Below are positions 2,173 to 18,202 of a DNA stretch of 64,000 nucleotides, piece by piece. The position numbers were made by a program, and so were the translations under genes. The stretch spans positions 23,765 through 87,764 of the forward strand of contig UQFQ01000004.1 in the NCBI GenBank assembly GCA_900540395.1, given 5' to 3'. The stretch comes from an uncultured Mollicutes bacterium. Lineage in GTDB: Bacteria > Bacillota_I > Bacilli_A > RFN20 > CAG-826. Under the pieces are notes generated by a model that worked only from the letters and a program-made list of their open reading frames with translations, was not told the DNA's origin and made no database searches. Numbering within the stretch: position 1 is the stretch's first letter; each line of letters opens with the position of its first letter.

Positions 2173-3031
2173 TATGAAATATTGTATAAGTGTAAAATTC
2201 GACGAATCAAAGAAAAATTACTTTTTTCAAACCGAAGACGAAACTATTTCGTTAAATGATTTTGTTGTTGTTGAAACAATTGTTGGTAAAGAAGTTGGCC
2301 AAGTTGTTTCAAATAAACAAGATTTAGAAAAAATGACCTTTGAAAAAGAAATTAAGCCTATTTTAAGAAAAGCGACCAAAAAAGATCTTCAAATATTCAA
2401 AGAAAATAAAGAAAGTGCACTTAAAGCAGGCGAAATTTTTGAAAAACTAACCAAAGAATTAAACCTTGATATGAGGTTAGTCAAAAGTGAATACACTTTA
2501 GATAAAGAAAAAATTCTTTTTACCTATTTCAGCGAAGAAAGAGTAGATTTTAGAGAATTATTAAAGCGTTTAGCCTCTTTACTTAAATGTCGAATTGAAT
2601 TAAGACAAATAACAGCTAGAGAAAGAGCCGCTTTAGTTGGCGGTTATGGTGTTTGTGGATTGCCACTTTGTTGTTCATATATGTATTCCAATCAAGAAGG
2701 CATTTCTCTAAATAAAGCCAAAAATCAAATGCTTACAATTAATATCCCTAAACTAAGCGGTGTTTGTGGTAAATTGCTCTGCTGTTTAAAATATGAAGAT
2801 GATTTTTATACTGAAGCCAAAAAAGATTTTCCACCAATCAATACAACATTTAAATATAATGGTGAAGAATTTAAAGTTTCAAGTTATAACATCTTAACTA
2901 AAATTGTTAAATGTGTAAGCACTGAAAATGTTGAATTTTTGCCATTAGATGAAGTTAATAAATACGTTAAGGAAAGTGGTAAGTTTCCTCAAAAAAAGCA
3001 ACCAACAAAACCTGTAAATAAAAATGCCTAA
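2162..3031 (+). CDS. ricT: PSP1 C-terminal domain protein (YaaT/RicT-like)
   Basis: Cys-rich PSP1 motifs (GGYGVCGLPLCCSYM..GVCGKLLCCLKYE). Conserved position after holB. The true start may be the ATG at 2174. Confidence 0.8.
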   Translation: MEINMKYCISVKFDESKKNYFFQTEDETISLNDFVVVETIVGKEVGQVVSNKQDLEKMTFEKEIKPILRKATKKDLQIFKENKESALKAGEIFEKLTKELNLDMRLVKSEYTLDKEKILFTYFSEERVDFRELLKRLASLLKCRIELRQITARERAALVGGYGVCGLPLCCSYMYSNQEGISLNKAKNQMLTINIPKLSGVCGKLLCCLKYEDDFYTEAKKDFPPINTTFKYNGEEFKVSSYNILTKIVKCVSTENVEFLPLDEVNKYVKESGKFPQKKQPTKPVNKNA

Positions 3032-3842
3032 TACTTTATATCTAGTCGCTTCTCCTATCGGAAATTTAAATGATGTTTCACCAAGAGTAAAAGAGGTTTT
3101 ATCTTCTGTTTCTTTTGTTGCATGCGAAGATACAAGAAATACTTCTAAACTTTTAAGTTTAATTGGAATTTCTAAACCTTGCATTTCATGTCATGAACAT
3201 AACGAAAAAGAAGAAAGTTTAAAGATAATCAAAAAAATTCAAAATGGCGAAGATGCTGCTTATTTAAGTGATGCTGGCTATCCTTGTATTAGCGATCCAG
3301 GCTTTTTATTAACTCAGGAATGTATAAAAAATAATATCAAGGTCGTACCTATTAGCGGTCCAAATGCAGCTCTTTTAGCTTTAATTGCTAGCGGCTTAGA
3401 TACAACTCATTTCATGTTTTATAGTTTTTTAGATGCTAAAATTTCAAAAAAAGAAGCTGAAATTGCAGAGTTTTCAAAATTTCCATATACAATTTTGCTT
3501 TATGAAGCGCCTCATAGAATTAACGAAACTTTATCTTCTTTATATAAAGTTTTAGGTAATAGAAAAATTTGTATTGCTAGAGAACTAACTAAATATTATG
3601 AAGAGTTTATTCGTAGCGACCTTAAAACACTAGTCGAAGAAAATAAAGAATATAAAGGCGAACTCGTAATAGTTTTAGAAGGCAAAAAAGAAGAGAAGAA
3701 TTTTGAAATAAGTGACGAACTTTTACTTAAAGCGAAAGAATTTGAAAAACTTGGGTATTCAAAAAAAGATATCGCTTCTATTTTATCAACCTTCTATAAA
3801 GTTAATAAAAACAAAATATATAAAGAATTAATTAAGGATTAA
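3024..3842 (+). CDS. rsmI: 16S rRNA (cytidine1402-2'-O)-methyltransferase RsmI (tetrapyrrole-methylase fold)
   Basis: N-terminus LYLVASPIGNLNDVSPR..ACEDTR is typical of RsmI/YabC. It follows yaaT as in Bacillus. Confidence 0.85.
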   Translation: MPNTLYLVASPIGNLNDVSPRVKEVLSSVSFVACEDTRNTSKLLSLIGISKPCISCHEHNEKEESLKIIKKIQNGEDAAYLSDAGYPCISDPGFLLTQECIKNNIKVVPISGPNAALLALIASGLDTTHFMFYSFLDAKISKKEAEIAEFSKFPYTILLYEAPHRINETLSSLYKVLGNRKICIARELTKYYEEFIRSDLKTLVEENKEYKGELVIVLEGKKEEKNFEISDELLLKAKEFEKLGYSKKDIASILSTFYKVNKNKIYKELIKD

Positions 3843-6800
3843 TCGTTATATTTTTCAATCAAATAGTTATACTTTTTAATAATCTCTGGATTAACTTTTA
3901 ATACTTTTCGATCAAAAGTGTAAAGACCATTGTATTCAGTTTCACAATCAGCTAGTTGAGTATAAATAACTCCTTTTAATATTCCCTTATCTATAAGTTC
4001 AATAAATTTTTTATAAAGCTTTTCATAGTGAATTGTTAAATTGGCGCTTGTAAAGGAAACTGAGTGAGAGAAAAAACCTTTATATAGTGAGTGTCCTTTT
4101 ACTTTTAAACCGCGTCCACCGCATTCAGAAAGTATATAAGGTTTATTTTGCTTTTTATCTTTTCTAACTCTAGTTTGGAATATATAAGCGTGAATGGAGT
4201 AAAGGTCTCTCTTATTATTTATATACCAACCACTTGTTGAATCATAAATACGACTATCATCACATTCTTTTGCTAAATCATAAACTGCATCAGGATCGAA
4301 TTCTCCCCATCCTTCATTAAACAAGGTGTAGCAGATAATTGATGGATAATTATAAAGTTCAGTCAAAATTTCTTGAAGTTCCCATAAATACATTTTTTTC
4401 GATTTCTCGTTTTTTCGCCCAAGCTTCTCTTCATTCATCAAATTAAGTTTATTAAATAGTTTAATGTTAAATCTAGGGAAGGCAGTATTAAAGAACTTAT
4501 ATTTATATCCACCATTTGGAATATCTTGAATAACAAGCATTCCATGTTTATCACAAAGATAATAGAAGTAGTCCATTTCTACTTTTATATGTTTACGAAT
4601 CGTATTAAATCCTAAGCCTTTTAAATTTAAAATATCCTTTTCATAATCTGCATAACTGCTTGGTGTTAATGAATTAGGGTAATAATATCCTTGGTCTAAT
4701 AAACCATTTAAAATTACCTCTTTGTTATTTAAAAGCACTTTAGAACTGCCATTTTCTTCTTTAATTTCTATTTTTCTAAATCCAAAGTAGGATTTTACAA
4801 CATCCTTTTTATATCTAATTTCTACATTATATAAATAAGGATTCTTATAAGACCAAGAAATTGGATTTTCTAAAGTTATTAAATTTTCTTTATTGGTTTC
4901 TAGATTATACGCTTTGCCATCAAGGAAAATAGTCGCTTGTTCAAATCTAGTATTATTAGTCATTACAATAACGCCAACTTGATTTAAGTCGTAATGAATT
5001 TTAAACTTCACTCCTCTTATGTAGTCTTTTTCAACAACTTCCATCCAAACGTTTTTATAAATTCCACTACTTGAGCTATAAAAACAAGTTTGTGGATTTA
5101 AAACTTGTTTACCGCGACTATAATAAAGAAAATCTGTAAAGTCATGAACTTTAACTATAATCTCATTTTCTTCTTTTAAAAAAGAAGTAATATTAACTGA
5201 AGTTTTAGTATAACCGGAATCATGATAAGTAACAAAATTACCATTTATAAACAAATCAAATGTTTGATCAACGCCATCTAAATGAAGAATATAGTTTTTA
5301 TTTTTATCAAAATCATCAATTTTTAAAAATCGACGATAAACAAGCATCTCGTCTACTTCTAAAAGATGATTAATATTAGAAAAAGGAGATTCAACCGCAA
5401 ATGGAACATTTACCTTTTTATCAAAATCCTTGTCTCCACCTTTCTTAACAATTTTTAAATCCCACAAACCATTTAAATTAATAAAAGAATCTCTAACTAA
5501 GTTTGGGCGTGGATATTCTTTAAAAGATACCTGATTAACATCTCTAATTTCTTTATCTTGTTTTTTGAGAAGGTCATTAACTAGATGACCATTATTTTTT
5601 GGAAACTTCTTCGTATATTTAAAAACAAAATATAAAGGTATTAAAACAAGCATCAAAACTCCTAAGGCTACTAAATACCCATAATTTGAAGGCAAAGCGT
5701 TAGGGAAATTAAATTGATCATAATAAATTTCACCATAAGCATTATTAAGTGCGCTACCAATGAATGGTCCAATACACATTGGTAAAGCAACAACAAAAAT
5801 CATTCTTATGCCCATAAATATTCCTTCATTACCTTCAGGAATATATGATCTAATTAAGGAATTTAAAATTGCTGGAAAACTTACATAACCTAAAATCATT
5901 ATTAATCCGCTGATTGAAGCATAGATGATTTTAGCAATATCATTTTCAATATAAGGAGCAAAAAACATCATGAATAAGCCCAATGCTGTTATTAAAAGTG
6001 TTGGGATTAACATTTTAGTTTTGCCTTTTTTATCTGCTCTAAAGCCAATAAAAACACTTAAAACAGAACCAAATAGTAATGATATAGCCATAACTATTGC
6101 AAAAGGCGTTAAGAAGGAATCTCCAAGATTAGAAATCTCACATGTTCTTTCTACATAAATCATTAAATAAGGAAAATATATTTGAACCGAAACATTAAAG
6201 ATAAAATAAGCAATTAAAATGATATACAAAAGTTTATTTTTCTTTATAGTTGTAGGTTTGAATCCTTCAAGTAATAAAGAAAAATATTTCTGTTCGCTTC
6301 TTTCATCCTTCTTTTCTTTAGGGAGTAAGAATAAGGAAATGATACCAACAACAAAAACTATTCCACCAACGATATAGAAAAATAAGTCCCATCTATTTCC
6401 ATTAGCTTCCGTTGTTAAACCATTTAGCCCAACAAAAATAATAAGCATTGCAATAAGTGGAAGAACGCCTAAAACGCCTTCAACTTTTGCCCTGTTTTTG
6501 TCTTCAATATTTTTAGTTATATAAGCGTTAAAGGCTGCGTCATTACCTGTTGATCCAAAAAAGGTCATTATGCAATCAATTACAATGACCATAATGGCGG
6601 CAGTAATCGCACTCATAGAAATTGGAATAAGTTCAACAGCACCATAAACATTTAATAATCCAAATGAGGCTGTTGATATACCCCATAAAATATAGCCAAA
6701 AGAAATGAATATTTTTCTTTTTCTAAGCTTATCGCTTAATCCACCCATAAAAATGGTTGTCAAAGTTGCTGTAACTGCACTTAAAGCAGTTGTAATAGAA

Positions 6801-6991
6801 ATTAATAAATTATAATCAAACTTCTCTGAAACAGGAGCATTAAAATTCAAATAAGCTATATATGTATTTAAATACATATTTTCAATTGACCAAGCAAATT
6901 GTCCTGCTAAGCCAATTAAAATAACAATTATCCACATTCTTAAGCCAACTTTGTTGGCTTTATTCAAATTAGCTGTTTGTGCTTTCTTCAT
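3839..6991 (-). CDS. Fusion protein. The N-terminal ~480 aa form a 12-TM GPH-family (glycoside-pentoside-hexuronide) cation symporter. The C-terminal ~570 aa are glycoside hydrolase family 2 (beta-galactosidase, beta-glucuronidase or beta-mannosidase class).
   Basis: GPH signature GGLSDKLRKRKIF after TM2 and multiple hydrophobic helices. GH2 sugar-binding, immunoglobulin-like and TIM-barrel regions carry the candidate acid/base motif TLFNEGWGE and nucleophile motif ILSECGG. The likely start is the ATG at 6991, with a GGAGG RBS 9 nt upstream, rather than 7021. Confidence 0.7.
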   Translation of the reverse strand: MKKAQTANLNKANKVGLRMWIIVILIGLAGQFAWSIENMYLNTYIAYLNFNAPVSEKFDYNLLISITTALSAVTATLTTIFMGGLSDKLRKRKIFISFGYILWGISTASFGLLNVYGAVELIPISMSAITAAIMVIVIDCIMTFFGSTGNDAAFNAYITKNIEDKNRAKVEGVLGVLPLIAMLIIFVGLNGLTTEANGNRWDLFFYIVGGIVFVVGIISLFLLPKEKKDERSEQKYFSLLLEGFKPTTIKKNKLLYIILIAYFIFNVSVQIYFPYLMIYVERTCEISNLGDSFLTPFAIVMAISLLFGSVLSVFIGFRADKKGKTKMLIPTLLITALGLFMMFFAPYIENDIAKIIYASISGLIMILGYVSFPAILNSLIRSYIPEGNEGIFMGIRMIFVVALPMCIGPFIGSALNNAYGEIYYDQFNFPNALPSNYGYLVALGVLMLVLIPLYFVFKYTKKFPKNNGHLVNDLLKKQDKEIRDVNQVSFKEYPRPNLVRDSFINLNGLWDLKIVKKGGDKDFDKKVNVPFAVESPFSNINHLLEVDEMLVYRRFLKIDDFDKNKNYILHLDGVDQTFDLFINGNFVTYHDSGYTKTSVNITSFLKEENEIIVKVHDFTDFLYYSRGKQVLNPQTCFYSSSSGIYKNVWMEVVEKDYIRGVKFKIHYDLNQVGVIVMTNNTRFEQATIFLDGKAYNLETNKENLITLENPISWSYKNPYLYNVEIRYKKDVVKSYFGFRKIEIKEENGSSKVLLNNKEVILNGLLDQGYYYPNSLTPSSYADYEKDILNLKGLGFNTIRKHIKVEMDYFYYLCDKHGMLVIQDIPNGGYKYKFFNTAFPRFNIKLFNKLNLMNEEKLGRKNEKSKKMYLWELQEILTELYNYPSIICYTLFNEGWGEFDPDAVYDLAKECDDSRIYDSTSGWYINNKRDLYSIHAYIFQTRVRKDKKQNKPYILSECGGRGLKVKGHSLYKGFFSHSVSFTSANLTIHYEKLYKKFIELIDKGILKGVIYTQLADCETEYNGLYTFDRKVLKVNPEIIKKYNYLIEKYND

Positions 6992-7340
6992 TTGATAAGA
7001 CCTCCTTTTCCTCTCTTTCAAAAGGTGTAAGTCCTATAACGTCGCTGACTTTAACTGAAAAAGCAATGCCGCTACCTTTAGTATCTAAACCAACCTTTTT
7101 ATATATATTAAGCATAACGTCATCTTTTATTTCTTCATCAACTAAAATAAAAACAATTTCTTTTTCAGGTTGAATAACAATTCCAAAAAAGGTCCCAAGT
7201 TCTTTATTTCCTGTGCCATGAGCCACAAAAGTTGTTCCGCCTCTTGCTCCGCATTCCTTTGCAGCATCCATTACATCTCCAGTATAACCTTGGTTAACGA
7301 TAACAATAATTAATTCATAATTCTTTTTGTTTTCTTCCAT
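6969..7340 (-). CDS. P-II-like (GlnB superfamily) small signalling protein, paralog 2
   Basis: About 110 aa with a beta-alpha-beta ferredoxin-like pattern (ELIIVIVNQGYTGDVMDAAKECGARGGT..GTGNK). The start is taken at the ATG at 7340, preceded by AGGAGG. Translationally coupled to its neighbours. Confidence 0.6.
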   Translation of the reverse strand: MEENKKNYELIIVIVNQGYTGDVMDAAKECGARGGTTFVAHGTGNKELGTFFGIVIQPEKEIVFILVDEEIKDDVMLNIYKKVGLDTKGSGIAFSVKVSDVIGLTPFEREEKEVLSNEESTNS

Positions 7341-7761
7341 TATCGTTCCTCCTTTTATTTTCTCTAACATTAGCTAAATATTTATAAACTAAAACACCAG
7401 CTACTGAATCAATATCCATGCAGAAGCTGATTCCTTTTAATTTTTTGTTCGCCTCAAATCTAGTTTTAATAATTTCTTTTAAAGGTTCAATCTCGTCAGT
7501 TTTTACTAAAGACATAACGATATCTTTTTTAGTTTCGCCTATACCTAAAATATCATAAATATCTTTTGTGGCTGTCCCGGTTCCAAAAATTTTAAATGAA
7601 GCCGCAACTTTTTTCTTTTCAAAAGCACGAACAAAATAATCGCCTTGACCACGATCAACAATAATGACCATGATTTTCAATTTTGCTATTTCATAGTCTT
7701 TATCGTAATTTGCTGAGCCTTCTTTGACTTCTATTTCTTTCTTTTCTTTCTTAAAAAGCAT
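7315..7761 (-). CDS. P-II-like (GlnB superfamily) small protein, paralog 1, with a ~28-aa N-terminal extension
   Basis: KIMVIIVDRGQGDYFVRAFEKKKV..GTGTA pattern. Immediately downstream of the DUF1538-like membrane gene. Confidence 0.55.
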   Translation of the reverse strand: MLFKKEKKEIEVKEGSANYDKDYEIAKLKIMVIIVDRGQGDYFVRAFEKKKVAASFKIFGTGTATKDIYDILGIGETKKDIVMSLVKTDEIEPLKEIIKTRFEANKKLKGISFCMDIDSVAGVLVYKYLANVRENKRRNDNGRKQKEL

Positions 7762-7769
7762 AATTTCAC

Positions 7770-9326
7770 CTACAAATGAATAATTTGTGCATCGTTAGTT
7801 TCTTTAACTTGCTTTTGAACCATTTTGTGTCTAAGACGAATTTTAATTGTAGCTTGTAAGCCTAAAAGTTGAATGCAAATTACAGGAACAGCACTAATTA
7901 AACCAATTACACCAAATCCACTATTTTCTCCAACAATATTAGCAATGCCCATTACAAAAGGAAGAACAAAACAAGAAGACATTGTTCCACTAGCAACACC
8001 GCCAGAATCAAAAGCAATAGCTGTATAAATATCTGGAACTGCAAAAGATAAAGAAATACTTAATAAATATAAAGGCACATAATAATAAACAATTGAAAAA
8101 CTACCAAATAATTCACGAACAACCTCAAGAACAATAGCTAAAGCAACACCTAAACAAAGAGTTATTAACATCTTATATTTAGAAATTGTTCCTCCACTAA
8201 CTTCTTCGACTTGTTGATTTAAAATATGTACACCAGGTTCAACAAGAACAACAGCAAAACCAATTACGATTGCTAAAATAATTAAGAGATAATTGTAGGC
8301 TCCCCCATGTACTGGATCTCCTAAATTATTTCCTAAAGAAAAACCTACTGGAATTAAACCAAACTTTGCCGCAACCAAGAAAATCGTGAGTCCAAAGTAG
8401 GTATAAATAAAACCTAAAAGAATCTTTATAAGCTCTTTGATTGGTAATTTAATAAAAATAAATTGATAAATAATAAAGAATATAAATATAGGAACTATTG
8501 CAAGCAAAACTTCTAAACAAGTTGAACTTAAGACTTCAAAAAATGGAGTATCTACATCTATTGTATTTTTGAGTTGACTAAAATCAGTAAAACTACTTAA
8601 ACACAAGAATAGGATCATTGTGCTAATCAAGGGTCCAATAGAACAAATTCCAGTAATACCAAAGGAATCACTTGATGCGTTTTTACCACCTCTAACAGTA
8701 GCAACACCTGCTCCAAAAGTAAGCAAGAAAGGAACTGTGACTGGCCCTGTTGTTACACCGCCAGAATCAAAAGCAATCGAAATTATAGCTTCGCCGTTTT
8801 TTCCATCAAGCAAACATCCTAAAGCAAAAACTATAAAATAAAAGAAAATTAGCCATATTTTCAAGTTTTGTTGAAAGATAATTCTTAATAAGCCAATAAC
8901 TAAAAATATTCCAACGCCTAATCCTATGCAAATTTTTAATGTCCAAGGATTAATTGTAGAAGACAATAAGTCGCCTAAAACAGTCAAATCAGGTTCGGCA
9001 ATTGTTATCATTAAACCTAACAAAAAAGAAATTATAACCATGAAAAATATAGATTGTTTCTTAGTGATGCTAGAACCAATATATTGACCAACCTTGCTCA
9101 TCGATATTTCACTACCAAAAGAAAACATTGCCATTCCTAAAATCAAAAAGATAAGACATATCAAAAAGGTAATAAGCATGCTTACGGAAATGGTTTCTGA
9201 AGGCATCAAAAAAGAATATTGTAATCCAAAAATTACAATAACTATCAAAGAAATAGGCACAACACTAATGGCAGCTTCTAATAATTTTTGCCAGGCTTCT
9301 TTAAGCATATTATTATTATAATTCAA
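7770..9326 (-). CDS. DUF1538-family polytopic membrane protein made of two homologous halves
   Basis: About 14 predicted TM helices. The internal repeat AIAFDSGGVTTGPVTVPFLLTFGAGVA and AIAFDSGGVASGTMSSCFVLPFVMGIA is seen directly. Family assignment is from memory of the Pfam DUF1538 and P-II gene-neighbourhood association. Confidence 0.65.
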   Translation of the reverse strand: MNYNNNMLKEAWQKLLEAAISVVPISLIVIVIFGLQYSFLMPSETISVSMLITFLICLIFLILGMAMFSFGSEISMSKVGQYIGSSITKKQSIFFMVIISFLLGLMITIAEPDLTVLGDLLSSTINPWTLKICIGLGVGIFLVIGLLRIIFQQNLKIWLIFFYFIVFALGCLLDGKNGEAIISIAFDSGGVTTGPVTVPFLLTFGAGVATVRGGKNASSDSFGITGICSIGPLISTMILFLCLSSFTDFSQLKNTIDVDTPFFEVLSSTCLEVLLAIVPIFIFFIIYQFIFIKLPIKELIKILLGFIYTYFGLTIFLVAAKFGLIPVGFSLGNNLGDPVHGGAYNYLLIILAIVIGFAVVLVEPGVHILNQQVEEVSGGTISKYKMLITLCLGVALAIVLEVVRELFGSFSIVYYYVPLYLLSISLSFAVPDIYTAIAFDSGGVASGTMSSCFVLPFVMGIANIVGENSGFGVIGLISAVPVICIQLLGLQATIKIRLRHKMVQKQVKETNDAQIIHL

Positions 9327-9387
9327 CGAGTACTATTTTTATATAAAAAATTTATTAAATTTCTTTACAGTTTCTTTAAAATACTCA

Positions 9388-9405
9388 GCAAAACTCAATT
9401 ATTTT
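9388..9405 (+). repeat. Copy 1 of the dispersed intergenic motif GCAAAACTCAATTATTTT
   Basis: Exact 18-mer shared with 32581, 39168 and 42152 (reverse complement). Confidence 0.7.
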
Positions 9406-9424
9406 ACAAAATTTCAAAATTGTT

Positions 9425-9460
9425 AATTAAAAGAAAAAAGCGCGTTTATTTTGCGCCTTT
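9425..9460 (-). terminator. Rho-independent terminator after the RluA-family gene. It is bidirectional, with A/T runs on both sides.
   Basis: AAAAAAGCGCG-tttatttt-GCGCCTTTTTT GC-rich hairpin overlapping the stop codon. Confidence 0.5.
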
Positions 9461-10414
9461 TTTGTTTGATTTATTGAATAAACCTTCAAATTCATTAGGT
9501 ATTTTTGTTGATAGTTTATAAGTCTTTCCACTAATTGGATTTTTAATAATTAGTTCATAAGCGTGTAAACAAAGTCTGCCTATTGGGTTTTCTGGTTCGC
9601 CATATTTGTCATCGCCTAAAACGTAATGCCCTAAACTTCCAAGTGTTACTCTGATTTGATTTTTTCTACCGGTAAAAATAGAAACGTCTAAAAGTGAGCA
9701 TTTCTCATTTTCTTTTAAAACTTTGTAATCAGTAATACATCTTTGAGCTTTTTTATCTTTAGAGGAAACAACATACATTAAATTTAAGGCGTTCATTCTT
9801 AAATAATTAACGATATGTTTTTCTTTTTCGTCCATTACTCCTTCGACAACGGCATAATAACCTCTTTTTGAAACAAGATCATTCCAACTGTTTTGAAACT
9901 CCTCTTTTAACTTTTCGTTTTTAGCAAAAATTAATACACCACTTGTTTCTTTATCTAGTCTATGAACAACATAAATTCGATTATGCTTGTCTTTTGCCTG
10001 AACATAATCCATAACCATTCTATAGGCGGTTGAGGATTTTTCTTTATCACTTGCAACGCTTAATAAGCCAAAAGGTTTGTTTATTGCAATAATATCGCTA
10101 TCTTCATAAATTATCGGTAAATCTTTTCTTGGTTTTTTACGAATAGGTTTTTTAGAAATAATCAAAGAGTCGCCTTTTGTTAATCTAAAATTAAATTGAC
10201 TAACTGGCGCTCCATCGATTGAAATCAAATGATGTGATAAAAGTCCCTTTGCGTTATTTCTTGAAAAATGAAGTTCTTCAATAAGGTATGTTAAAAGTTC
10301 AGAATCTTTTTTAACAATAAATTCTTTTATATCAAGTTCTTTTTTTGATTGATATTCTTCTAAGCTTTTTCCTTTTAATCTATTTTTTAAATTTTCTTTA
10401 TAATTCTTATTCAT
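9446..10414 (-). CDS. rluD: RluA-family 23S rRNA pseudouridine synthase (RluD-like, N-terminal S4 domain)
   Basis: S4-like N-terminus and catalytic motif [15 protein letters not shown]. Confidence 0.85.
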
Positions 10415-12286: not shown

Positions 12287-13252
12287 TTAATTTAAATTGT
12301 CCATTGCTAAACAAGCACATCCAATAATGCCTGCATCGTTTTTTAAACTAGCAATTTTAATTTCAACTTTTGGTGTATGACGATACCCGTAATGGTACTT
12401 TTCACAATAAGCTTTTACTTTATCTAAAAGATAGTCACCTTGATTAGAAATTCCACCGCCAATAAGAATAATTTGTGGTCTAAATATATTACAGAAATTT
12501 AAAATACCTTCACTTAAATATTTAACATAGGTATCGATGACTTTTATTGCTGCTTCATCACCTTTTTTAGAACATTCAAAGCTTGTTAATCCGGTTACTG
12601 ATTCAATATCGTGATCACAATAATCCCACATAATAGAATTTGGATTCTTTTTCATTTCTTCTTTTGTAAGTTTAAGAAGAGCACTTGCACTAGCATAAGC
12701 TTCAAAACAACCCCTTCTACCACATGCACATTCGTGTCCGTCGACAACAATTACTGTATGGCCAAGTTCAGCTCCTTTTCCATCAACACCTTCAAAAAGT
12801 TTATCATCGATAACAACTCCGCCACCAATTCCGGTACCTAAAGTGAGTAAAACAACATCAGTATAACCTTTAGCAGCACCAAATCTTTCTTCACCAAGTG
12901 CAGCAACGTTTGCATCATTTGATAAGAAAATAGGTAAATTTAAATCTTTCAAATAATCTTTTAATGGAACATCTTCAACATAAAGATTACAAGCATAATC
13001 AATTGTTCCAAGTTTATTATTAACAACGCCAGGAATACCAAATCCGATTGCAAGAGGTTTCATATTATTATCTTTTGCGTAATCAACCATCTCTACCATT
13101 AAAGCCTTAATATCTTTTAATAAAGCTTCTTTGCCACCATTAACACTGTTGGTCTTTATTGAACCTTTGTGCAAAATTTTGCCTTGTTCATTTACCAAAC
13201 CAGCTTTAATAGACATTCCTCCAACGTCGACACCAATATAAACATTTTCCAT
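12287..13252 (-). CDS. glcK: ROK-family glucokinase
   Basis: ROK signature and Zn-binding motif HECACGRRGCFEAY. N-terminal ATP-binding YIGVDVGG motif. Confidence 0.85.
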   Translation of the reverse strand: MENVYIGVDVGGMSIKAGLVNEQGKILHKGSIKTNSVNGGKEALLKDIKALMVEMVDYAKDNNMKPLAIGFGIPGVVNNKLGTIDYACNLYVEDVPLKDYLKDLNLPIFLSNDANVAALGEERFGAAKGYTDVVLLTLGTGIGGGVVIDDKLFEGVDGKGAELGHTVIVVDGHECACGRRGCFEAYASASALLKLTKEEMKKNPNSIMWDYCDHDIESVTGLTSFECSKKGDEAAIKVIDTYVKYLSEGILNFCNIFRPQIILIGGGISNQGDYLLDKVKAYCEKYHYGYRHTPKVEIKIASLKNDAGIIGCACLAMDNLN

Positions 13253-13981: not shown

Positions 13982-15109
13982 ATGGCAAAAGACAAAGTAA
14001 AAATTATTAAAAACAAAAAGAAATTCAACTTTGCATCAGTTTGGAAATTTGTAAAAACTTTATTTAAAAACGACGCTGTTGTAGAAGTTGCAACCACAAC
14101 CAAATGGTATTGGTCACTTATAGTATTTGTATTTGCGCTTGTTATCTCAGTCTTACCTTCAACAGTAAGTCAAGCAACCGCACAAGGCAGAAATTTTGTA
14201 TCAGGAAGCAATACAAGTTATTCTGATCCTTATATTAATGGTCTTTATGATTATTATAATAGTGATGTAGAAAACGCAAACATTGTATTTGATACAGCAA
14301 CAAACAAACTTTCTTCAACTACAAATAGTAGTGATTATTATGATACAGCTGACTATGCATTAAGTGATGGAACAAGAGCACCTAAACCACTTTATTCATA
14401 CTCTAGACAAGTTGAAAATAGTGGTCTTACTACAACTACTAATTATTTAGATATTTATGTCTATTACACTGGTAGTAATGGCACTTTAGACTTAAACCTT
14501 TTGTTATCAAACATTCAAGCAACCAATACAAACTTTGCTGATGGTTATACAACAAATACTGATGTTAAATATACTCGTCAAACTCCATTTATTCTTTTTA
14601 CAGATGATGGATTCTATGCAGTAAATTACTCTTCACAAGGTTCAACATCAATCTCTGGAAATTTTGCTCACATGTTAGAAGCTTTCAATTTTACAGGGTC
14701 CACTTATACATTTAAAGATGTATTAGGCTATCAAATCGTTGACAATTTAAGCGTTTCTGATATGCAAACTGCAATCTTTAGCAATTTCTTAACATGGTGT
14801 GATTACACTTATTTAGATGCACGTTTCACTTCAACTTGGGTTACTTTTGGTATCTATTGTGGTGTTAATGGTTCAATCATGTTATTAATGGGCTTAATCA
14901 TTTGGCTTATGTGCAGAGGTAAAAACAATCCAAATAACAAACTCAAAATTTGGGAAACTTACTCAATGGGCTTCTGGGCTTCATTGTCCCCTGCAATTCT
15001 CTCATTATTTGGTTTCTTAATGCCAAGCCTTGGAATGATGTTATTCATTATGCTATATGCATTTAGAATTATGTTCCTTTCAATGAAACAATTAAGACCA
15101 ATGTATTAA
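13982..15109 (+). CDS. Hypothetical membrane-anchored surface protein. It has a basic cytoplasmic N-terminus, one TM helix, a ~240-aa Thr/Ser/Asn/Tyr-rich ectodomain and a C-terminal bundle of 3-4 TM helices.
   Basis: Composition and hydropathy read from the translation. No recognisable catalytic motif. Adjacent to ssrA. Confidence 0.55.
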   Translation: MAKDKVKIIKNKKKFNFASVWKFVKTLFKNDAVVEVATTTKWYWSLIVFVFALVISVLPSTVSQATAQGRNFVSGSNTSYSDPYINGLYDYYNSDVENANIVFDTATNKLSSTTNSSDYYDTADYALSDGTRAPKPLYSYSRQVENSGLTTTTNYLDIYVYYTGSNGTLDLNLLLSNIQATNTNFADGYTTNTDVKYTRQTPFILFTDDGFYAVNYSSQGSTSISGNFAHMLEAFNFTGSTYTFKDVLGYQIVDNLSVSDMQTAIFSNFLTWCDYTYLDARFTSTWVTFGIYCGVNGSIMLLMGLIIWLMCRGKNNPNNKLKIWETYSMGFWASLSPAILSLFGFLMPSLGMMLFIMLYAFRIMFLSMKQLRPMY

Positions 15110-15979: not shown

Positions 15980-16716
15980 AATTCAACGACCTCGTGCTGA
16001 GAGGCACATTTAATTTCAATATGATCTAAGTTAACCTTTCGAAGAGTCAAAACATTATGATAAGTATCTAATGCTTTTTCTGGTGTATTACATTCTTCAC
16101 TTAAATGAGCTAATACAATTTTTTTAGTATTTTCTCCAATTAAATTAGACATATAAAACGCACTATCTTCATTAGATAAATGCCCTTTATAAGAAAGTAT
16201 CCTGCTTTTTAAAATTGCTGGTCGGTTACTATTTAATAACATTTCTACATCATGATTAGACTCAACAATATAGTAGGTCTTGTTTTTAATTAAATTAAAT
16301 GTTCTTTTGCTGATTTGTCCAGTATCAGTTAAATAAACTAGCTCTTCACTATCACTCTTAAGCAAAAAGCCACAAGTTGGATTAGAATCATGAGAAGCTT
16401 TAATTGGCATAATTAAAAAACTACCTAATTGGTATTCTTTATAACAACTTAATTCGTGATTTTTTAATAAAGGAACAATGTTTTTTAGTGCATATCTTTT
16501 TTCAATTGGTGTGCATTCATAAGATTTAATGTGGTCACTATGAGCATGAGTAAATAAAAAATAATCAAGATTTGCAATGTTTTTACCAATAGAAGATAGT
16601 TTTTCTTCAATCTCTTTTTTACTAATTCCAAAATCAATTAATATAGATGTATCATTATTAAAAATTAGTGTAGCGTTGCCTTTTGAGCCGCTAGCTAAAA
16701 CATAAGCATTAATCAT
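15976..16716 (-). CDS. MBL-fold metallo-hydrolase (YycJ/WalJ-like)
   Basis: HAHSDH motif. Position between dnaB and rlmH as in Bacillus, but without walRK. The start is taken at MINAY to remove the overlap with dnaB. Confidence 0.75.
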   Translation of the reverse strand: MINAYVLASGSKGNATLIFNNDTSILIDFGISKKEIEEKLSSIGKNIANLDYFLFTHAHSDHIKSYECTPIEKRYALKNIVPLLKNHELSCYKEYQLGSFLIMPIKASHDSNPTCGFLLKSDSEELVYLTDTGQISKRTFNLIKNKTYYIVESNHDVEMLLNSNRPAILKSRILSYKGHLSNEDSAFYMSNLIGENTKKIVLAHLSEECNTPEKALDTYHNVLTLRKVNLDHIEIKCASQHEVVEL

Positions 16717-18202
16717 TGTTGTCAGCGTCTTTGAATTTATCAGAATAGTTTGAGCCAGGCATATCAGGTGTATATGCATGTTCTTTTGATGGAGTAAAAA
16801 ATCTTCCGTATGCAGTTATAAAATAAAGTTCAGTGCTTCCCGTACGGCCGTTTCTATTTTTAGCAACAATTACTTCAACTGGATCAGCCTTTTTGTCATC
16901 AGAAAGACCTCGTTCTTGAACTTGTGGAGTTGGTTCATTGCCTTCACTTCCTTTTCCTTTTTTATCTCCGCCAACAGAAATACCTTGGTTTTTATAGTAA
17001 TCAGGACGATAAAGGAATAAAACTTTGTCAGCGTCTTGCTCAATAGCACCAGAGCTTCTTAAATCAGCTAGTTGTGGTCTTTTATTTTCTCTAGCATCAG
17101 TTTGACGATTTAATTGGGAAAGAGATAAAACTGGGCAACCAAGTTCGCCTGAAAGCATTTTTAAACGACGGGAGAAATAAGCAACCTTAGCTTGTTCGTT
17201 GTCCTTATAAATGTTTTTAGGATCATTAATTAAACCAATGTAATCGATAACTATTAAAGCTAAATCTCCTCTTGATTCTTTAAGTTTTCTTGATTTTAAA
17301 ACAATGTCTTCAATTGAGGATCCACTATTATCATCTATATATAAAGGGACAGAAGCTATATCATCTTCAACCTCTTTTAATTTTTGTCTATCGTTAATTG
17401 ACAAAATTCCTTTTTGTATATTGTCGTACGAAATTGAACTTTGTGAAGCAAAAAGTCTCTTAATAATCATATCAGTTGCCATTTCCAAAGAGAAAATAGC
17501 TACAGGTCGATTTGTTTTAGAGGCTGCATTAAAAGCTATATTTAAAGCTAACGCCGACTTACCAACAGATGGTCTAGCTGCTAATATGATTAATTCGTTT
17601 TTATTTAACCCATTAATAATTCCATCAAGTCTAGTAAACCCGGTTGTAATACCAGTAATCGAGCCTTCAATACCATGGCTTTCTTGTATTTTGGCTCCAA
17701 CTAAACGAGCCGCTTCCTTTGCACTAATAAAATCACTAACTCTTCTTTGCTCAGTAATTTTGTTAATACGAGCTTCACATTCAGCAACAAAAGAATTAAC
17801 TTCTTTAATAGCTTTGTTATTATAGTCATCACGAATTCTATCGATTTCTTGAAGTAAATTACGTAAAAGAGTTTGATCTTTTAAATTTTTTACATAGTAT
17901 TCGACATTTTTAAAAGTTGTAACACATTTTGCTAAATTAACTAAATAATCAACGCCCCCGACTCTTGATAAGTCTTTAGTATTATTTAATTGATTAGCAA
18001 CAGTTGTAATATCGATGGCAGTTCCTGAATCATAGAGCATTTTCATCGCTCTAAAAATTAAAGAATTTTTTCTATTGTCAAAATAAAAATCATCCTCAGA
18101 TAAGGTTGCTAAAATTTCAGAAGCGTTTTTAGAATCTAACAAGCAAACGCCCAATACAGTATTTTCACTTATTTCATCATAAGGATAATTTAAACTAGCC
18201 AT
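16709..18202 (-). CDS. dnaB: Replicative DNA helicase (DnaB family), with a ~35-aa low-complexity insertion and a ~30-aa C-terminal tail
   Basis: Walker A GARPSVGKS, RecA-like core. rplI-dnaB synteny. Confidence 0.9.
   Translation of the reverse strand: MASLNYPYDEISENTVLGVCLLDSKNASEILATLSEDDFYFDNRKNSLIFRAMKMLYDSGTAIDITTVANQLNNTKDLSRVGGVDYLVNLAKCVTTFKNVEYYVKNLKDQTLLRNLLQEIDRIRDDYNNKAIKEVNSFVAECEARINKITEQRRVSDFISAKEAARLVGAKIQESHGIEGSITGITTGFTRLDGIINGLNKNELIILAARPSVGKSALALNIAFNAASKTNRPVAIFSLEMATDMIIKRLFASQSSISYDNIQKGILSINDRQKLKEVEDDIASVPLYIDDNSGSSIEDIVLKSRKLKESRGDLALIVIDYIGLINDPKNIYKDNEQAKVAYFSRRLKMLSGELGCPVLSLSQLNRQTDARENKRPQLADLRSSGAIEQDADKVLFLYRPDYYKNQGISVGGDKKGKGSEGNEPTPQVQERGLSDDKKADPVEVIVAKNRNGRTGSTELYFITAYGRFFTPSKEHAYTPDMPGSNYSDKFKDADNND

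Follow-up and report, generated by a model that had tools for sequence, protein, structure and literature searches.

We found a gene for a membrane transporter fused to a glycosidase in a 64,000-nucleotide stretch of DNA from an uncultured Mollicutes bacterium (GenBank assembly GCA_900540395.1, contig UQFQ01000004.1); this whole stretch is called the window below. In the encoded protein, a transporter of the major facilitator superfamily (MFS) is followed by an enzyme of glycoside hydrolase family 2 (GH2). With a probability of about 0.65, the MFS domain imports a small furanoside, which is then immediately hydrolysed by the tethered cytoplasmic exo-furanosidase. The imported compound would be a small glycoside with a furanose at its non-reducing end, most likely β-D-galactofuranose, with α-L-arabinofuranose as the main alternative. 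The GH2 domain, held by a short linker at the cytoplasmic face of the membrane, would act as a retaining exo-furanosidase of group III, with E893 as the acid/base and E956 as the nucleophile, and would cleave the substrate on arrival. The gain from the tether may be a direct hand-over of the substrate, or hydrolysis may lower the cytoplasmic level and pull uptake. We infer the transport direction, the substrate identity and the kinetic advantage of the tether.

The listing of open reading frames (ORFs) and the translation give one open frame on the minus strand (window positions 3839-6991), from the ATG at 6991 to the stop TAA at 3839-3841, with 1050 amino acids and no internal stop. The original prediction, a note made from the DNA sequence without database searches, had placed the gene at these coordinates, which are correct, and had described a transporter and a GH2 hydrolase as a single polypeptide with no stop between them. 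This description is confirmed by Pfam, which detected MFS_1 (PF07690) at residues 41-409 (123.2 bits against a cut-off of 33.4, E 1.5e-35) and the three GH2 domains Glyco_hydro_2_N (PF02837) at residues 526-649, Glyco_hydro_2 (PF00703) at residues 674-739 and Glyco_hydro_2_C (PF02836) at residues 750-999, each above its cut-off. The quoted motifs are also present: GGLSDKLRKRKIF at residues 83-95, NEG at residues 892-894 and SECGG at residues 955-959. A second, unrelated NEG is found at residue 388. The gene and its domains are as follows.

3839..6991, minus strand: MFS-GH2 fusion coding sequence, 1050 amino acids plus the stop TAA at 3839-3841, supported by full-length homologues
7001..7007, minus strand: Shine-Dalgarno-like AAGGAGG, 9 nt upstream of the ATG at 6991, within the 3' end of the upstream P-II gene
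5612..6949, minus strand: MFS transporter domain, residues 15-460, 12 transmembrane (TM) segments, both termini predicted to be cytoplasmic (Pfam, hydropathy and Lys/Arg distribution, AlphaFold2)
5525..5611, minus strand: predicted cytoplasmic linker, residues 461-489 (29 residues), with a short helix at 471-477 (AlphaFold2, pLDDT 73-90)
5027..5524, minus strand: GH2 N-terminal jelly-roll (sugar-binding) domain, residues 490-655, holding K628 and Y638 (Pfam; alignment; PMC11627007)
4721..5026, minus strand: GH2 immunoglobulin-like middle domain, residues 656-757 (Pfam PF00703; AlphaFold2 strands)
3842..4720, minus strand: GH2 TIM-barrel catalytic domain, residues 758-1050 (Pfam PF02836; Foldseek TMt 0.88-0.89 to 7SF2 and 9J6M)

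The AlphaFold2 model of the fusion has a mean pLDDT of 89.3 and a pTM of 0.71. The 12 TM segments found by hydropathy correspond to the same 12 helices in the model. Lysine and arginine are abundant at the N-terminus, in the loops 2-3, 4-5, 6-7 and 8-9 and in the stretch that follows TM12, and a Lys/Arg-rich loop at residues 224-253 joins the two six-helix halves in both the hydropathy plot and the model. By the positive-inside rule, both MFS termini are predicted to be cytoplasmic, and thus the GH2 domain is also predicted to lie in the cytoplasm, as the original prediction had argued from the number of helices. The window protein has no signal peptide. The ordered linker with its short helix, as seen in the model, hints at a fixed docking of the GH2 domain.

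It had been feared that a hidden stop or an assembly error had merged two neighbouring genes. In other species the two halves can indeed form a split gene pair, in some cases with an overlap of the stop and start codons, and a single indel there could mimic a fusion. However, the 90%-identity cluster of the window protein has 279 members, 14 of the 15 listed members are exactly 1050 amino acids long, and these 1050-residue members come from separate ENA, NCBI and Logan records. Orthologues at 69-85% identity span 1043-1050 amino acids, the frame is continuous in 22 other species-level genomes, and the linker is modelled with high confidence. The fusion is genuine, and a lost stop or frameshift is refuted for practical purposes, with a negligible chance left to it. 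An alternative, longer start is the TTG at 7021. This start is unlikely, because all close homologues have 1043-1050 amino acids and the AAGGAGG sequence sits 9 nt before the ATG at 6991. The GC content is 28-30% over the fusion gene and its neighbours and gives no sign of recent horizontal transfer.

The same MFS and GH2 architecture is shared by more than 120 clusters of proteins of about 1000 amino acids, with identities of 35-99%, so the fusion is not as rare as had been supposed. Few of these clusters are named at all, and those carry the name 'MFS transporter' (Erysipelotrichaceae, Bacilli). In a locus survey with one genome per GTDB species, at least 599 relatives were found and the best 80 loci were analysed. 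Both halves are encoded in 38 of these loci, while the other 42 have only a GH2 gene, with no related MFS gene within 10 kb. The carriers include uncultured Bacilli, Erysipelotrichaceae, Lachnospiraceae (including the cultured Acetatifactor muris DSM 23669), Oscillospiraceae and Christensenellaceae, and a Sphaerochaetaceae genome carries the split form. Among the 38 paired loci, 22 have one continuous frame and 16 have separate adjacent genes, with the MFS gene followed by the GH2 gene. Several split pairs (for example, L064, L067 and L071) have a ribosome-binding site and an ATGA stop/start overlap, and the junction also overlaps in L063. In the split pair L004, an in-frame TGA at 3238-3240 lies between the halves, and the GH2 coding sequence goes on in the same frame. 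Thus, one point change or indel would toggle such loci between the split and the fused state.

The pairwise distances of the MFS and GH2 halves correlate with r = 0.84. Parsimony on a neighbour-joining tree of the concatenated halves, a crude approach, counts eight changes between the fused and split states (6-9 in 100 bootstraps); a few of the split cases in metagenome-assembled genomes could be frameshift errors. Such recurrent fusion and fission is the classic Rosetta-stone relationship. Together with the co-divergence of the two halves, it supports well the functional link between transporter and hydrolase that the original prediction had proposed. A split MFS/GH2 pair with a 4-nt overlap is also found in the locus L087 (GCA_010550585.1, JAAGNE010001047.1), whose proteins look actinobacterial (high-GC-type composition). 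Judging from this locus, the pair may extend beyond Firmicutes.

We compared the GH2 half (residues 488-1050) with all chains in the Protein Data Bank (PDB) using phmmer. The best match is 7SF2 (E 1.6e-75, over the full length), followed by the β-D-galactofuranosidase ORF1110 of Streptomyces sp. JHA19 (9J6N/9J6M; 1.3e-58) and 7XYR (2e-49), whereas glucuronidases are matched at about 1e-14 and LacZ at about 1e-8. Foldseek with the AlphaFold2 model, which superposes on GH2 structures, gave the same ranking, with TMt values of 0.84-0.89 for 7SF2, 9J6M/9J6N and 7XYR and 0.67-0.76 for glucuronidases. Thus, 7SF2, 9J6M and 7XYR outrank all other GH2 proteins by more than 30 orders of magnitude in E-value, and also by TM-score. 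In the 2025 CAZy subdivision of GH2, 9J6M belongs to GH2_18 and 7XYR to GH2_19, both in group III, while the subfamily of 7SF2 is not stated (PMC12243196). Group III is the sole GH2 group with furanosidase activities, namely β-D-galactofuranosidase and α-L-arabinofuranosidase, and has a threonine in place of the stacking tryptophan of other GH2 enzymes, including β-glucuronidase (GUS) and LacZ; about 90% of GH2_19 proteins are non-secreted (PMC12243196). On the basis of its closest relatives in sequence and in predicted fold, the GH2 half of the window protein is assigned to the group III furanosidase clade (GH2_18/19), and its sugar-contact residues and threonine also fit. The positions concerned are listed below.

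4313..4318, minus strand: N892-E893, the NE motif; E893 is the predicted acid/base and corresponds to E464 of ORF1110 and E413 of Escherichia coli GUS (alignments)
4124..4126, minus strand: E956, the predicted nucleophile, corresponding to E530 of ORF1110 and E504 of GUS (alignments)
4064..4066, minus strand: H976, at the position of Y551 of ORF1110 (alignment)
3926..3961, minus strand: TQLADCETEYNG, residues 1011-1022, with T1011 and E1019 (alignments; PMC11627007; PMC12243196)

In the complex of ORF1110 (9J6M/9J6N) with an iminogalactitol, the galactofuranose mimic is held by K212, Y228, H401, N463, E464 (acid/base), E530 (nucleophile), Y551 and E594 (PMC11627007). In the phmmer alignment, these residues map to K628, Y638, H801, N892, E893, E956, H976 and E1019 of the window protein. 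With the exception of position 976, none of the eight contacts varies among the 86 fused proteins, and the same seven are invariant in all 81 GH2 sequences from fused, split and stand-alone loci. K628 and Y638 correspond to the O3/O6-binding K212 and Y228 of ORF1110, and E1019 to E594, which binds O5/O6 of galactofuranose. The catalytic glutamate pair is intact, as N892/E893 and E956 are invariant in the 86 homologues; the loss of this pair upon proper alignment, which the original prediction had named as a possible refutation, did not appear. The Mg-site residues D157, D201 and Q213 of ORF1110 also have counterparts, of which D575 and D617 are nearly invariant and Q629 is invariant. T1011 is invariant among the family members and, from its conserved YT(Q/E) motif, is likely to be the group III threonine that replaces the stacking tryptophan. 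Position 976 is a tyrosine in 46 and a histidine in 38 of the 86 fused proteins and is a tyrosine in all 42 stand-alone GH2 homologues; His976 marks the subclade of the window protein. Since Tyr551 of ORF1110 touches O5 and the ring nitrogen of the bound inhibitor (PMC11627007), H976 could mean a shifted specificity or pH optimum.

The transporter half is a member of the MFS, as PF07690 scores above its cut-off in the query and in all 33 relatives tested, and MFS_1 is the best Pfam model in every one of these relatives. It shows the hallmarks of the superfamily, with 12 TM segments in two halves and a motif A (GxxxD[RK]xGR[RK]) that reads GGLSDKLRKRK at residues 83-93. The following signatures were located in this half.

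6866..6904, minus strand: TM1 clade signature GQFAWSIENMYLN, residues 30-42 (alignments A1 and A4; the same motif is found in DUF2804-fused relatives)
6707..6745, minus strand: MFS motif A in the TM2-TM3 loop, GGLSDKLRKRKIF, residues 83-95
6527..6577, minus strand: TM4-TM5 clade signature DCIMTFFGSTGNDAAFN, residues 139-155 (alignments A1 and A4; aligns weakly with AmpG 9C3F)

The clade can be recognised by two signatures, GQxAWxxENxY in TM1 and DCxMTFFGSxxNDAAFN in TM4-TM5. In TM1, the residues G30, Q31, A33, W34, E37 and N38 are invariant in both alignments, and M39 and Y40 never vary in A1 and hardly vary in A4. In TM4-TM5, D139, M142, G146, S147, D151 and A152 show no variation in either alignment; C140 and N150 are invariant in A4 but not in A1, and T143 in A1 but not in A4. 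The original prediction had assigned the transporter to the GPH family of sugar symporters and had quoted GGLSDKLRKRKIF as its signature. The motif itself is there, but it is the generic MFS motif A, and the hhalign alignment with E. coli GusB puts a four-residue gap inside it. The GPH assignment was not borne out by the family models. MFS_2, the GPH model of Pfam, has no match to the query at E<=0.01 and matches 19 of the 33 relatives, always more weakly than MFS_1. NCBIfam has no match for the MFS half of the query; in the relatives its generic models are scattered, with a metabolite/H+ symporter model in 24 of 33 and the GPH model TIGR00792 in just 7. The hhalign comparison with GusB gave a probability of 75.5%, an E-value of 2.4e-5 and 17% identity over 282 columns, which is similarity at the superfamily level.

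Searching the PDB sequences with the MFS half by phmmer gave nothing below E = 0.97. A profile made from 33 MFS sequences matched AmpG, YajR, LmrP, a lactate transporter and GlcP at E-values of 3e-4 to 1e-2; the best solved match, AmpG (9C3F), is marginal (E 3e-4, 22.6 bits). In an exhaustive search among 1.84 billion cluster representatives, the MFS half found only 155 at E<=1e-30 and 783 at E<=1e-3. Because close representatives are few and the family matches are scattered and weak, we assign the transporter, by sequence, to a small, distinct and unnamed MFS clade that is not demonstrably GPH.

The original prediction had drawn an analogy with the gus and lac systems, in which a GPH symporter would import glucuronides or galactopyranosides and a β-glucuronidase or β-galactosidase would cleave them. 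The logic of a permease with a cytoplasmic GH2 enzyme is indeed the same, there are weak, partial NCBIfam matches to β-galactosidase and β-glucuronidase models, and MFS_2 does match more than half of the transporter relatives. Nevertheless, the analogy very probably fails for specificity. The protein reaches 72 bits with the NCBIfam glucuronidase model NF007538 (cut-off 544) and 64-94 bits with the LacZ-type models (cut-offs 999-2000). The GH2 half is 20% identical to E. coli UidA, and the catalytic glutamates align. However, the GUS segment with NKK (the N566/K568 loop) falls in a nine-residue gap of the pairwise alignment. The NxK motif (N566/K568 in E. coli GUS) binds the glucuronate carboxylate. 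In the Pfam search, no LacZ C-terminal domain, including Bgal_small_N, was found past the TIM barrel, and the protein stops at residue 1050. Thus, the protein has neither the NxK motif and equivalog score of a β-glucuronidase nor the five domains and equivalog score of a LacZ. The stacking tryptophan of GUS and LacZ is reportedly also replaced by threonine in group III (PMC12243196), with the invariant T1011 as the likely equivalent, and the furanosidase clade lies far above GUS and LacZ in both the sequence and the structure searches. On the transporter side, the missing MFS_2 match in the query and the 75% hhalign probability for GusB weigh against the analogy as well. Because of the clade ranking, the conserved ORF1110 contacts and the missing GUS and LacZ features, the enzyme is most probably an intact retaining exo-furanosidase and not a GusA or LacZ analogue.

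A second partner of the transporter clade bears on the nature of its substrates. In two MFS-clade representatives, P0187 (795 amino acids) and P0203 (771 amino acids), a C-terminal DUF2804 domain (PF10974; E 2.4e-92 and 1.8e-88) takes the place of GH2, and both have the same TM1 and TM4-TM5 signatures. Operons with the order MFS-DUF2804-GH2 (group III) are found in L093/L094 (4613-8797) and L095 (6633-10782), and one with the order MFS-GH2-DUF2804 in L107 (4807-9011). In L087, the split MFS/GH2 pair lies beside a convergent DUF2804 gene (8068-9048), and in L064 a DUF2804 gene (16029-16985) lies 3 kb from the pair. Among 80 metagenome DUF2804 loci, many of them on short contigs, 8 adjoin a clade MFS gene and 3 of these also a GH2 gene. 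DUF2804 has no solved homologue by sequence search. Its AlphaFold2 model (pLDDT 95) is an all-β double barrel that resembles AttH; in Foldseek, the likeness to AttH, kievitone hydratase, decalin Diels-Alderases and a 25-phosphosteroid lyase is weak (TM 0.45-0.53, about 10% identity). These are folds that bind hydrophobic ligands, not folds of glycosidases. In the only paper on DUF2804 that we found, the DUF2804 gene PA3342 of Pseudomonas aeruginosa is induced in the GliR glycerolipid regulon (PMC8151288). The fold likeness and this regulon weakly suggest that the substrates of the MFS clade may carry a hydrophobic or glycerol-type aglycone.

These observations bear on two alternatives to furanoside import for nutrition, as well as on a broader proposal. 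The protein might process glycolipids or amphipathic glycosides, with the MFS domain acting like the flippases LplT and LtaA to deliver to the inner leaflet a glycoside whose aglycone is hydrophobic, and GH2 would remove the sugar there. Galactofuranosyl-glycerolipid fragments and plant glycosides would be candidate substrates, and DUF2804 would handle the aglycone in other species. The DUF2804 fusions and operons, the convergent gene in L087, the AttH-like barrel, the induction of PA3342 and the existence of enzyme-fused MFS lipid flippases (such as LplT-Aas) are in favour of this idea. We nevertheless consider it rather unlikely, as the Foldseek likeness is weak, no DUF2804 gene is present on the genome fragment of the window, and the clade MFS stands beside just 8 of the 80 DUF2804 loci. 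Moreover, 42 soluble stand-alone GH2 proteins with no MFS gene nearby have an identical active site, which suggests soluble substrates, and polar residues (Q, W, E, N, D) make up most of the invariant positions of the transporter, which fits sugar binding. A broader proposal, about as doubtful, is that the MFS clade is a docking carrier that has repeatedly recruited, by gene fusion, a group III GH2 furanosidase, DUF2804 or both, for a hydrolysis-driven vectorial uptake of furanosyl glycosides with a glycerol, lipid or hydrophobic aglycone. Such units may be a kind of group translocation without phosphorylation, for example for galactofuranosyl-glycerol(lipid) fragments shed by gut bacteria and fungi. 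If true, this would be a new uptake mode and would give DUF2804 a physiological role.

Somewhat less likely still is that the protein recycles the galactofuranose polymers of the cell's own envelope, as AmpG and NagZ do for muropeptides, and does not scavenge nutrients. The housekeeping neighbours of the gene, with no regulator and no catabolic cluster, would suit such a role, the anhydromuropeptide permease AmpG is the best solved match of the MFS profile, and glf (UDP-galactopyranose mutase) lies within 10 kb of the pair in L068 and L071. However, the match to AmpG is marginal, only 2 of the 38 paired loci have glf nearby (the rough chance expectation is about 0.3), and neither glf nor a galactofuranosyltransferase is visible in the 64-kb window. 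The two glf genes (L068 15577-16671, L071 2594-3682) are 3-7 kb from the pair, and their products share 58-62% identity with E. coli Glf; no glf gene turned up near the 42 stand-alone GH2 loci. By this similarity, the organisms of L068 and L071 may make galactofuranose themselves, but two loci are too weak a basis to support self-recycling.

Import and hydrolysis of a small furanoside by the fusion protein thus remains the reading we prefer, and several points weigh against it. No close relative of the MFS half is characterised; AmpG, at E 3e-4, is the best match with a solved structure, and import rather than export is deduced from the cytoplasmic position of the hydrolase, the sole basis for this choice. 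The closest structure to the GH2 half, 7SF2, is itself uncharacterised. The ring-contacting tyrosine is replaced by histidine in the subclade of the window protein. The O6-binding triad is conserved, with arabinofuranose still a candidate beside galactofuranose. The neighbourhood does not help either. In a Pfam scan of 130 neighbours of the 38 paired loci, each family was seen three times at most and no regulator, kinase or other glycoside hydrolase is enriched, and among 147 neighbours of the 42 stand-alone GH2 loci no Pfam family is enriched. Thus, the context gives no clue to the substrate, and the pair is a self-contained unit, usually with no dedicated regulator or catabolic partner.

In the window, the fusion gene is preceded by three genes on the same strand.

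7770-9326, minus strand: DUF1538 membrane protein gene
7315-7761, minus strand: 148-residue ORF
6969-7370, minus strand: P-II protein gene, whose stop lies 23 nt inside the start of the fusion gene (23-nt overlap)
6969..9326, minus strand: these upstream genes as a whole, which are context and do not belong to the conserved system

The near-identical contig L081 shares this upstream arrangement, and in the 85% relative L001 the ORFs correspond in size and position. Other loci do not keep this neighbourhood; P0040, for example, follows an Opp-type ABC transporter. In a scan of 3400-9700, there was no convincing promoter directly upstream of 6991 and no minus-strand terminator, and promoter-like sites were fewer than in shuffled sequences. 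The best promoter-like site on the minus strand (9398-9426, a consensus match only) is located upstream of the DUF1538 gene. The DUF1538, 148-residue ORF, P-II and fusion genes may form a lineage-specific co-transcription unit; the promoter scan is consistent with this and is not evidence for it. On the other side, a convergent TP_methylase (RsmI-like) gene (3024-3842) has a stop that overlaps the fusion stop within TTAA (3839-3842), leaving no intergenic space for a terminator. Further away, the window contains a ROK-family protein gene (12287-13252) and, on the plus strand, a 375-residue ORF (13982-15109) with predicted membrane segments and a Ser/Thr/Asn-rich middle, for which Pfam gave no match at E<=0.001.

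The logic of a permease with a cytoplasmic GH2 enzyme is classical, and the fusion proteins are already in databases under uninformative names. The public labels are 'MFS transporter' or 'beta-galactosidase/beta-glucuronidase', and both miss the nature of the protein. Its interest lies in the probable furanosidase identity, in how widely the family occurs among Firmicutes of the gut and rumen, in the recurrence of fusion and fission and in the link to DUF2804. To our knowledge, mammals lack galactofuranose, but it is a frequent constituent of the surface glycans of fungi and bacteria. Most of the galactofuranosidases known so far are either secreted by soil actinomycetes and fungi or come from Bacteroidota. 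A cytoplasmic group III GH2 enzyme wired to a transporter across gut and rumen Firmicutes would indicate an unrecognised route of furanoside harvest or recycling. The fused, translationally coupled and unlinked versions are a natural experiment on how tethering relates to uptake kinetics.

Among known systems, ORF1110 of Streptomyces sp. JHA19 (GH2_18; 9J6M/9J6N) and GfgA/GfgB of Aspergillus have the same three-domain GH2 build and belong to group III. ORF1110 matches the GH2 half (E 1.3e-58, TMt 0.88), with the glutamate pair, seven of the eight contacts and the Mg-site counterparts kept. However, ORF1110 is secreted and soluble and has a C-terminal AbfB binding module, whereas the GH2 half lies behind a 12-TM transporter and is predicted to face the cytoplasm; the identity is about 27%, and Y551 is replaced by histidine. 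BACCELL_01794 of Bacteroides cellulosilyticus (7SF2) is the closest solved structure over the GH2 half (about 30% identity, TMt 0.88-0.89) and likewise carries the NE and the nucleophile motif. This soluble protein stands alone and comes from a structural-genomics deposit; no activity has been published for it, and it allows no transfer of function. E. coli UidB/UidA (GusB/GusA) and LacY/LacZ follow the same logic, an MFS-type permease and a cytoplasmic retaining GH2 enzyme encoded side by side, but they are separate polypeptides, their enzymes are from another GH2 clade, and GusB is remote (17% identity).

No published description of an MFS-GH2 fusion was found in the literature. In LplT-Aas fusions and in LacS, as here, an MFS-type carrier bears a cytoplasmic C-terminal domain that acts on the transported molecule or regulates how it is handled. 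LplT-Aas fusions combine the carrier with an acyltransferase/ligase and not with a glycoside hydrolase. The nearest published case is the MFS-IIA chimera LacS, in which a GPH carrier of the MFS type has a C-terminal cytoplasmic IIA domain that is regulatory and not a glycoside hydrolase (PMC8990778). Neither LacS nor LplT-Aas has a sequence relationship to the window protein beyond the MFS fold. The split pairs and the MFS-DUF2804(-GH2) operons (L024, L035, L071, L087, L093, L095 and L107), in contrast, have an orthologous transporter (GQxxWxxEN) and a group III GH2 enzyme in the same order, and differ from the window protein in that the genes are separate or that DUF2804 is fused to the transporter in place of GH2.

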